A program made the position numbers and the translations under genes. Source: a virus. From it: DNA of 64,000 bases. Shown here piece after piece: positions 60,979 to 61,680 of the stretch (positions are counted from its first letter, which is position 1; each line of letters opens with the position of its first letter). The notes under the pieces are model-generated. The model made no database searches, was not told where the DNA came from, and was given only the letters and a program-made list of their open reading frames with translations. Location: IMG/VR virus record IMGVR_UViG_3300042863_003045, positions 38,657 through 102,656 of that record, one strand, 5' to 3'.

Positions 60979-61680
60979 ATGGAAGATTTCGAAAAATCAA
61001 TATTAGAAAAATTCAATTTTATCAATAAAACAAAAGTTGTTGGTGAAATCCGTCAATTAAAAGTGCAAATGTCACTTACTGATGAGGAAATGATATTATC
61101 CTTAATAAAAGAAGAATTAAAACAATCTTTATTTAAAAACTTATTTAAAGATTCTTTAAAAATCTCAAATATTGAATTTCTCGATCTAAGACCTTTAGGT
61201 TTAGAATCCACTTATCTACCACATGTGACATATCTTTCCAAGATAGTTGATAGATTAAAGAATATTCAAGGAAAAAATTTATTAACGAATGGTAGATTAT
61301 ATACTGATCTAAGTGATTCCTCTCAATTTTATGTACATAATGCAAAAATAGTGGCGGCGGATCCACTTCCTTTTTTAGTCGGAAGTTTGTCTGGTAAAAA
61401 TTTATGGGTTGATGTGTTTACTCAGTGGGATGAAAATTTCATTCTAATATTTGATTCAATTGATCTTGAAATAGTAAGTATAGGCAAAAACATTAATAAT
61501 AATTCACCAAACATTGTATCACAAATGGAAGTTTATTTAGATTATAAATTTTCTATTTCAAATCCTTCAGTTCTTTATATCTTTACTAATGATTATCAAA
61601 AGAACTTATCTATTCTTATAAGTAGTCAAAGAGATAATCGTATAGATGAAATATTTGATGAAACTGAAAAAATTTATTAA
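60979..61680 (+). CDS. Degenerate major-capsid-protein-like fragment
   Basis: Collinear similarity to the C-terminal half of 49307..51064. Confidence 0.6.
   Translation: MEDFEKSILEKFNFINKTKVVGEIRQLKVQMSLTDEEMILSLIKEELKQSLFKNLFKDSLKISNIEFLDLRPLGLESTYLPHVTYLSKIVDRLKNIQGKNLLTNGRLYTDLSDSSQFYVHNAKIVAADPLPFLVGSLSGKNLWVDVFTQWDENFILIFDSIDLEIVSIGKNINNNSPNIVSQMEVYLDYKFSISNPSVLYIFTNDYQKNLSILISSQRDNRIDEIFDETEKIY

Follow-up and report, generated by a model that had tools for sequence, protein, structure and literature searches.

The 64,000-nucleotide stretch of viral DNA analyzed here (the window) carries an intact gene whose product is a stripped-down paralogue of the phage's own gp23-type major capsid protein (MCP), predicted to consist of a minimal HK97 core followed by a C-terminal tag helix. 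Paralogues of MCPs are familiar chiefly as vertex proteins, T4 gp24 being an example, and this gene, which we call mini-HK97, stands out among them by its minimal fold, by a tag that spans the lineage and by being strictly conserved in megaphages. We tentatively interpret the product as a tagged capsid mimic, a "bait plus handle" that would be unable to join the capsid lattice, and give this interpretation somewhat less than an even chance. A lineage that is among the largest phage genomes known conserves a capsid-fold protein without capsid-knitting elements, fused to a peptide label of many unrelated proteins. With a G+C content of 28.9%, the window makes up the right-hand 64 kb of a viral record that is 102,656 bp long. 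Because CheckV puts the completeness of the source record at 21%, the record is a fragment of a several-hundred-kb genome. The two genes at the center of the analysis are:

60979..61680, + strand: mini-HK97 gene, ORF of 233 aa; stripped-down gp23-type MCP paralogue plus C-terminal tag helix
49307..51064, + strand: gp23-type MCP, 585 aa (Pfam Gp23, E 4.6e-27); parent or paralogue of mini-HK97

The kinship between the two proteins was settled by family context, using profiles, since pairwise BLASTP is marginal: mini-HK97 and the window MCP share 24% identity over 82 aa at E 0.017, a value that is borderline alone, and overall identity to the MCP of the same phage is about 20-25%. Comparison by hhalign of a 10-sequence mini-HK97 family with an alignment of lineage MCPs gave 98.2% (E 5e-14), and the 95-sequence family gave 99.5% (E 2.5e-22, 175 columns), with mini-HK97 residues 25-191 paired with MCP residues 336-561. 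In plain tblastn, the window MCP also matched the mini-HK97 orthologues of related phages at E 1e-9 to 2e-10. The original prediction had noticed three collinear blocks shared with the MCP at 49307; BLASTP recovers blocks 2 and 3, and the 95-sequence hhalign alignment covers all three. On these alignments, the part of the window MCP to which mini-HK97 is homologous is the C-terminal ~40%, and the homology is clear across the spine helix, the A-domain and the strands of the P-domain. The proteins differ in that mini-HK97 contains nothing equivalent to MCP residues 1 to ~335, with just 24 residues ahead of the segment that pairs with MCP 336, and in that it evolves 2-3 times faster and carries the tag.

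An AlphaFold2 model built on the 95-sequence alignment reached a mean pLDDT of 93.2 and a pTM of 0.87. Foldseek searches of the PDB and BFVD with this model returned HK97-fold proteins only, namely MCPs, T4 gp23 and gp24, and encapsulins. The best match in VIA-align was T4 gp23 (Z 13.2, rmsd 3.4 Å, 188 residues), next to T4 gp24 (Z 10.9-12.0) and Family 2 encapsulins (Z 11.0-11.2, rmsd 2.7-3.0). Model residues 12-204 align with gp23 109-521, so that ~190 residues of mini-HK97 cover ~410 of gp23. The model thereby depicts mini-HK97 as a complete minimal HK97 core and not a fragment; its earlier description as the C-terminal half of the capsid protein holds for the sequence but fails for the structure, which contains the whole minimal core. 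Because profile and structure comparison both yield an HK97/gp23-type fold, the similarity whose absence would have spoken against the original prediction, we regard mini-HK97 as established to be capsid-derived. Its parts are as follows:

61021..61074, + strand: E-loop stub, residues 15-32, two short strands (DSSP of the model), the second of which aligns to MCP 336-344 in hhalign
61084..61164, + strand: spine helix, residues 36-62, block 1, aligned to MCP 362-388
61168..61584, + strand: A-domain and P-domain sheet, residues 64-202, blocks 2 and 3 (BLASTP, hhalign and model)
61408..61437, + strand: loop VDVFTQWDEN, residues 144-153, counterpart of VDPYQRYNDN in the MCP
61606..61674, + strand: C-terminal helix beyond the HK97 fold, residues 210-232 (23 residues; model and VIA-align)
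61630..61656, + strand: tag R-D-N-R-I-D-E-I-F, best-conserved segment of the mini-HK97 family

According to hhalign and the model, mini-HK97 lacks the propeptide, the N-arm, the insertion domain and the outgoing strand of the E-loop, and it has no N-terminal extension. What the model retains of the E-loop is two short strands only, and in VIA-align model residues 10-35 span ~131-200 of HK97 gp5. The C-terminal helix has no counterpart in T4 gp23, the last residue of which (521) aligns near model residue 204.

Mini-HK97 belongs to a real, conserved gene family and is intact in this window. As had been noted, its ORF of 233 aa lies downstream of dam; the ATG at 60979 follows the Dam stop at 60972 with a spacing of 6 nt. 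None of 14 close relatives of the protein (67-97% identical) is truncated, and an exhaustive HMM search put the family at no fewer than 148 clusters (50% identity), which with few exceptions measure 210-280 aa and include no full-length MCP. Established families and databases gave little: Pfam and PHROGs contained no match for the protein or its relatives, and the window protein and five relatives stayed without a Pfam match at E up to 1-10. The orthologue in one related genome scored 11.1 bits on PF07068 (Gp23/gp24), below the gathering cut-off of 24.4 bits. The 10-sequence profile found nothing in PDB sequences, where T4 gp24 was the sole capsid match of the 95-sequence HMM, at a sub-threshold E of 0.22. 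The ESM Atlas offered no usable match, and a full-text literature search found no description or function of the family.

The gene had been described as a degenerate copy, which we can follow only for one loop. The best-conserved loop of the mini-HK97 family reads VDP[YF]Mx[YFW]xDxR in terms of column conservation, and when MCP and mini-HK97 loops were paired in 7 genomes, the mini-HK97 loop of the relatives agreed with DPYM[RK]YNDNRI, the loop of the MCP, at 9-11 of 14 positions. In the window the sequence is VDVFTQWDENF, with V for a Pro that is 91% conserved, T for Met and F for Arg; judged by the alignment, the clade of the window has drifted at this loop. That the DPxM...R signature is lost there is what one would expect if mini-HK97 were the leftover of a partial MCP duplication, without function and in decay. 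We consider such a remnant very improbable, as the ORF is intact and of family length, the 67-97% identical relatives are free of truncations, length is constant across the 148 clusters, the fold is predicted with confidence, and the synteny and the tag are conserved. Mini-HK97 is therefore not degenerate, given its intact ORF, the constant length of its family and its confidently predicted fold. Co-variation between MCP and mini-HK97 loops was not seen in the 7 pairs. Outside core residues and this one loop, the surface of mini-HK97 shows no conservation with the MCP, which would confine any mimicry to the level of the fold or to the loop. A gp23-like A-domain loop (LYVDPNMRWDDTRM) also occurs in a 313-aa ORF of LR756500, a different huge phage of 462 kb (L056 2464-3405, + strand). 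This ORF is flanked by a DNA-polymerase fragment and a RecA/UvsX-like gene, in a genome without tag matches.

The genomic neighborhood places mini-HK97 at the end of a T4-like head region, which in the window contains, besides the MCP:

37684-39372: portal, part of the T4-like head module
47175..49265, + strand: prohead protease fused to a repeat-rich scaffold-like region; opens the conserved block
54368..54757, + strand: NFACT-R domain protein (Pfam), member of the conserved block
55524..57263, + strand: peptidase (phrog_4191), 579 aa, member of the conserved block
58403..58906, + strand: NADAR-domain protein (Pfam PF08719, E 1.1e-25), member of the conserved block
59208..60029, + strand: LAGLIDADG homing endonuclease, between NADAR and dam; in some relatives only (L011, L012)
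60031..60972, + strand: Dam-type N6-adenine DNA methyltransferase (Pfam PF02086, E 3.8e-15), directly upstream of mini-HK97

We compared this arrangement with 11 related loci from LR745206 (635 kb), from LR756502 (642 kb) and from IMG/VR contigs, among them near-complete genomes of 476 kb and 483 kb. In these loci the genes for protease-scaffold, MCP, NFACT-R, peptidase, NADAR, in some cases LAGLIDADG, Dam and mini-HK97 form a co-oriented block; mini-HK97 is single-copy and its synteny is fixed in all 11, and Dam is adjacent to or overlaps mini-HK97 in all relatives. The claim that the gene lies outside a late head operon is contradicted by this order, in which mini-HK97 closes the syntenic block that the prohead protease and the MCP open. 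NFACT-R, peptidase, NADAR and Dam make up a conserved non-structural insert between MCP and mini-HK97 (11/11 related loci). The distance between the two capsid-related genes is ~5 kb in the relatives vs 10 kb in the window, where inserted endonucleases and extra ORFs account for the wider spacing. Homing endonucleases are dense around the head genes (43939-47050, - strand; 51112-53018, + strand; 59208-60029, + strand), with two of ~520 aa upstream of the protease and one and a half downstream of the MCP. At 1972-2109, tblastn with the protease-scaffold protein found a match that repeats the 14-aa unit of the scaffold 45 kb away. A promoter scan detected sigma-70-like sites at chance level only. 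Downstream of the NADAR gene lies a terminator-like hairpin (59030-59055, + strand; 9-bp stem plus T-run), which suggests that the LAGLIDADG, dam and mini-HK97 genes may form a separate transcription unit. When phages in GenBank were searched by tblastn, the mini-HK97 family appeared only in LR745206 and LR756502, and no cultured carrier was found. PMC9723777 cites these two genomes as the megaphages from freshwater and the subsurface that Al-Shayeb et al. described.

The RDNRIDEI motif noticed near the end of the protein is indeed present (61630-61656) and turned out to be a tag common to many unrelated proteins of the lineage, which alters how the mini-HK97 gene should be read. Its consensus is R-D-x-K/R-I-D/N-x-I/L-L/F, with column conservation in the mini-HK97 family of R 100%, D 72%, K 83%, I 91%, D/N, I 72% and L 86%. 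R218 is invariant across the 95 family sequences, and the tag is conserved more than the body. We scanned the tag-bearing genomes G001, G002, LR745206 and LR756502 (loci L026-L055), which are related and measure 476-642 kb, with a degenerate DNA pattern. It matched 8, 7, 19 and 13 times in the four, placing the tag on 7-19 ORFs per genome; reversed as a control, the pattern gave 0 matches, and in the unrelated 462 kb phage LR756500 the tag pattern gave 0 as well. About 30 of the 33 in-frame matches in the fetched loci lie 10-15 residues from a stop codon. The tag on the relatives' ORFs stands nearly always 1-6 residues before the stop, and in the window protein RDNRIDEIF ends 7 residues before it. 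The carriers are otherwise unrelated ORFs of 74-377 aa without family assignment, and many of them cluster close to genome ends. A further carrier is found in the window:

24220..25017, + strand: unrelated 265-aa ORF with the identical tag type, ending SNRDFRIDQILK-stop (RDFRIDQILK-stop), tag at 24985-25011

This ORF was rejected as a mini-HK97 paralogue, as the two have the tag alone in common and hhalign aligns 12 residues only. Because the codons for the Arg, Ile, Lys and Asp of the tag vary among the matches, the tag is constrained at the peptide level, which rules out a DNA-level element. A prohead-protease site of the T4 type was discarded, as no conserved Glu follows I/L-x. A membrane-type N-terminal segment is present in 3 of 26 tagged proteins. 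The tag is therefore not confined to parts of the virion, and a purely capsid-packaging signal is weakened accordingly. In T4, the internal proteins IPI-III and Alt bear a capsid-targeting sequence, a short conserved terminal peptide. The megaphage tag resembles it in that its carriers, in a T4-related phage, evolve fast and are otherwise unrelated; it differs in being C-terminal and not N-terminal, in having no conserved protease site after it and in occurring also on proteins with membrane-type N-termini.

Mini-HK97 is the fastest-evolving gene of its block. Between two related loci (L007 and L011), identity is 88% for the MCP, 95% for Dam and 91% for NADAR vs 59% for mini-HK97, and between the window and its relatives it is 70-72% for the MCP and 71-79% for Dam vs 19-29% for mini-HK97. 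In T4-type phages, gp24 likewise outpaces gp23 (46/32/56% vs 72/61/75% identity), and a fast rate therefore does not discriminate between the readings discussed below. Profile comparison of the mini-HK97 family gave E 1.5e-4 with the gp24 family vs E 0.038 with the gp23 family, and the lineage MCP gave E 0.018 with gp24 vs E 3.4e-7 with gp23. This hints at a reciprocal pattern, mini-HK97 with gp24 and MCP with gp23, if a faint one. The far closer match of mini-HK97 to its own MCP (E 2.5e-22) and the loop motif in common suggest an origin by lineage-specific duplication, or else a constraint common to both.

A Pfam Gp23 scan of near-complete relatives detected one full-length MCP per genome, mini-HK97 below threshold, a second small protein (mini2) and ORFs of 67-75 aa; no second full-length gp23/gp24 homologue was found in relatives that are 97-98% complete. 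The small ORFs other than mini-HK97 are:

L022 1378-2154, - strand; L017 1426-2178, - strand; L010 13499-14272, - strand: mini2, 250-258 aa, Pfam Gp23 26 bits
L021 1450-1653, - strand; L016 1429-1656 and 1634-1786, - strand: micro-ORFs of 67-75 aa that copy the last strands of the MCP, and next to them an ORF of 50 aa that ends in RKEKIEKIF

In the relatives, mini2 lies on the opposite strand, ~5.5 kb downstream of mini-HK97, and it is 77-95% identical among the best 120 of 296 clusters. The record of the window ends before the corresponding position and holds no copy. An AF2 model of mini2 on a shallow alignment had a pLDDT of 42.

The original prediction had named a decoy for capsid-sensing defense systems, a minor vertex protein and an assembly regulator as candidate roles. 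A role other than that of the tagged mimic, possible but on balance unlikely, would be that of a reduced gp24-type vertex or minor capsomer protein, which occupies pentons or special capsomers of a giant head, has shed the insertion domain and arms and bundles its C-terminal helices on the capsomer axis. Axial bundles formed by C-terminal helices occur in phiKZ capsomers (PMC11297242), which counts for such a role. So does the genetic position: mini-HK97 lies on the same strand downstream of the MCP in a T4-like head module, in parallel to T4 genes 23-segD-24, as a single-copy core gene of genomes that contain no other candidate of full length. T4 gp24 (PF07068) is likewise an HK97-fold, gp23-type paralogue encoded downstream on the same strand and evolving faster than its MCP, at a relative rate that mini-HK97 resembles, and the reciprocal profile affinities and the sole PDB capsid match agree with this kinship. 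However, mini-HK97 has 233 aa vs 427 aa in T4 gp24, no above-cut-off Pfam match, an extra C-terminal tag helix and non-structural genes between itself and the MCP. It also lacks the insertion domain and the N-arm and has only a stub of the E-loop, and we know of no HK97-type lattice subunit without the inter-capsomer elements N-arm and E-loop. Reduced gp24 proteins do exist: a short homologue (299 aa) is encoded away from annotated head genes in the KVP40-like Vibrio phage D491s and is, like mini-HK97, small and without insertion domain, but it keeps ~70 residues before the E-loop-like strand that mini-HK97 does not have, carries no tag and matches the mini-HK97 family at an E of 0.38, which is not significant. 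Within the 10.7 kb examined, the neighbors of its gene (L060 4827-5726) are Alt-like, Alc-like and gp55-like and not head genes. Also against a vertex role, mini-HK97 is far closer to its own MCP than to gp24 (E 1.5e-4), its tag is common to small soluble and membrane-anchored proteins, and mini2 (257 aa), which reaches the Pfam Gp23 cut-off and is highly conserved, is an at least equally good vertex candidate.

The tag, being more conserved than the body, could instead mean that the HK97 core was exapted for a tag-pathway role unrelated to the phage head, for example as a reader hub or cargo, or as an encapsulin-like compartment. Tags on many unrelated proteins recall the cargo-loading peptides of encapsulins, and Family 2 encapsulins, which have a compact HK97 core of similar size, match the model at a Z of about 11, roughly on a par with T4 capsid proteins. 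Yet the tag sits on the shell-like protein itself, and of the E-loop and N-helix that encapsulins possess, the mini-HK97 model has a stub of the former only. There is no encapsulin match of Pfam or NCBI type and no sequence relationship was detected (Pfam, E up to 1); sequence homology points to the phage's own MCP, and the gene stands in a head-gene context. We consider an exaptation of this kind improbable.

The tagged capsid mimic that we tentatively favor accommodates the MCP homology, the confident HK97 model and the missing counterpart of the N-terminal 335 MCP residues, together with a tag that is the most conserved segment, is under peptide-level constraint, occurs on many other ORFs and is not virion-specific (3/26 carriers of membrane type). 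From the results of this analysis on homology, fold, absent elements, the tag with its distribution, synteny and evolutionary rate, we infer the binding steps and the biological target as follows. The bait would be the compact HK97 core, which descends from the gp23-type capsid protein of the phage itself. This core keeps the spine helix, the sheet of the P-domain and the A-domain, with its loop that in relatives hardly differs from the one in the MCP. The parts that weave the lattice, namely the propeptide, N-arm, insertion domain and nearly all of the E-loop, are missing. The handle would be the C-terminal amphipathic helix R-D-x-K/R-I-D/N-x-I/L-L/F, which presumably docks onto one common reader because many unrelated small proteins of the lineage carry the same helix. 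Acting by competition, the body may engage a normal partner of the MCP without polymerizing while the handle ties it to the common reader; the putative partner could be a host sensor of capsid protein, or the MCP capsomers or assembly factors of the phage itself or of a rival. The gene follows Dam immediately and has NADAR, like Dam a DNA-protection type of enzyme, close by; this location and its rank as the fastest-evolving gene of the block fit this proposal, even if the rate is non-discriminating since gp24 behaves likewise. Against the mimic, single copy and fixed synteny in 11 loci suit a morphogenetic gene better than a typical counter-defense gene, and the surface is unlike that of the MCP beyond the core and the one loop, which has drifted in the window's clade. 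To our knowledge, no capsid decoy of such a kind has been demonstrated experimentally.

Further features that agree with a tagged mimic are seen in the 67-75 aa ORFs, which combine an MCP excerpt with a tag-like end. They match positions 302-354 of Pfam Gp23 (E 9e-9), end in LIRKxKIENIFKI (RKxKIENIF) and, as far as their sequence tells, cannot be lattice subunits. We speculate that these megaphages run a systematic mimic system, in which pieces of their own essential proteins, from 67-aa excerpts to a whole capsid core, are joined to one address helix; mini-HK97 would then be the conserved core member that, at the level of its fold, misleads host immunity that senses capsids, or that poisons the head assembly of rival phages, and is linked by its tag to the common reader. 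This extended scheme is, in our estimate, quite doubtful. If mini-HK97 is a mimic, it would be a capsid decoy or a modulator of assembly of natural origin and could lead to the reader of the tag, and if it is a vertex protein, it would reveal how much reduction an HK97 subunit tolerates in a giant head. Either way, the confidently folded and expressible protein provides a handle on giant-head building and on the role of the megaphage tag.
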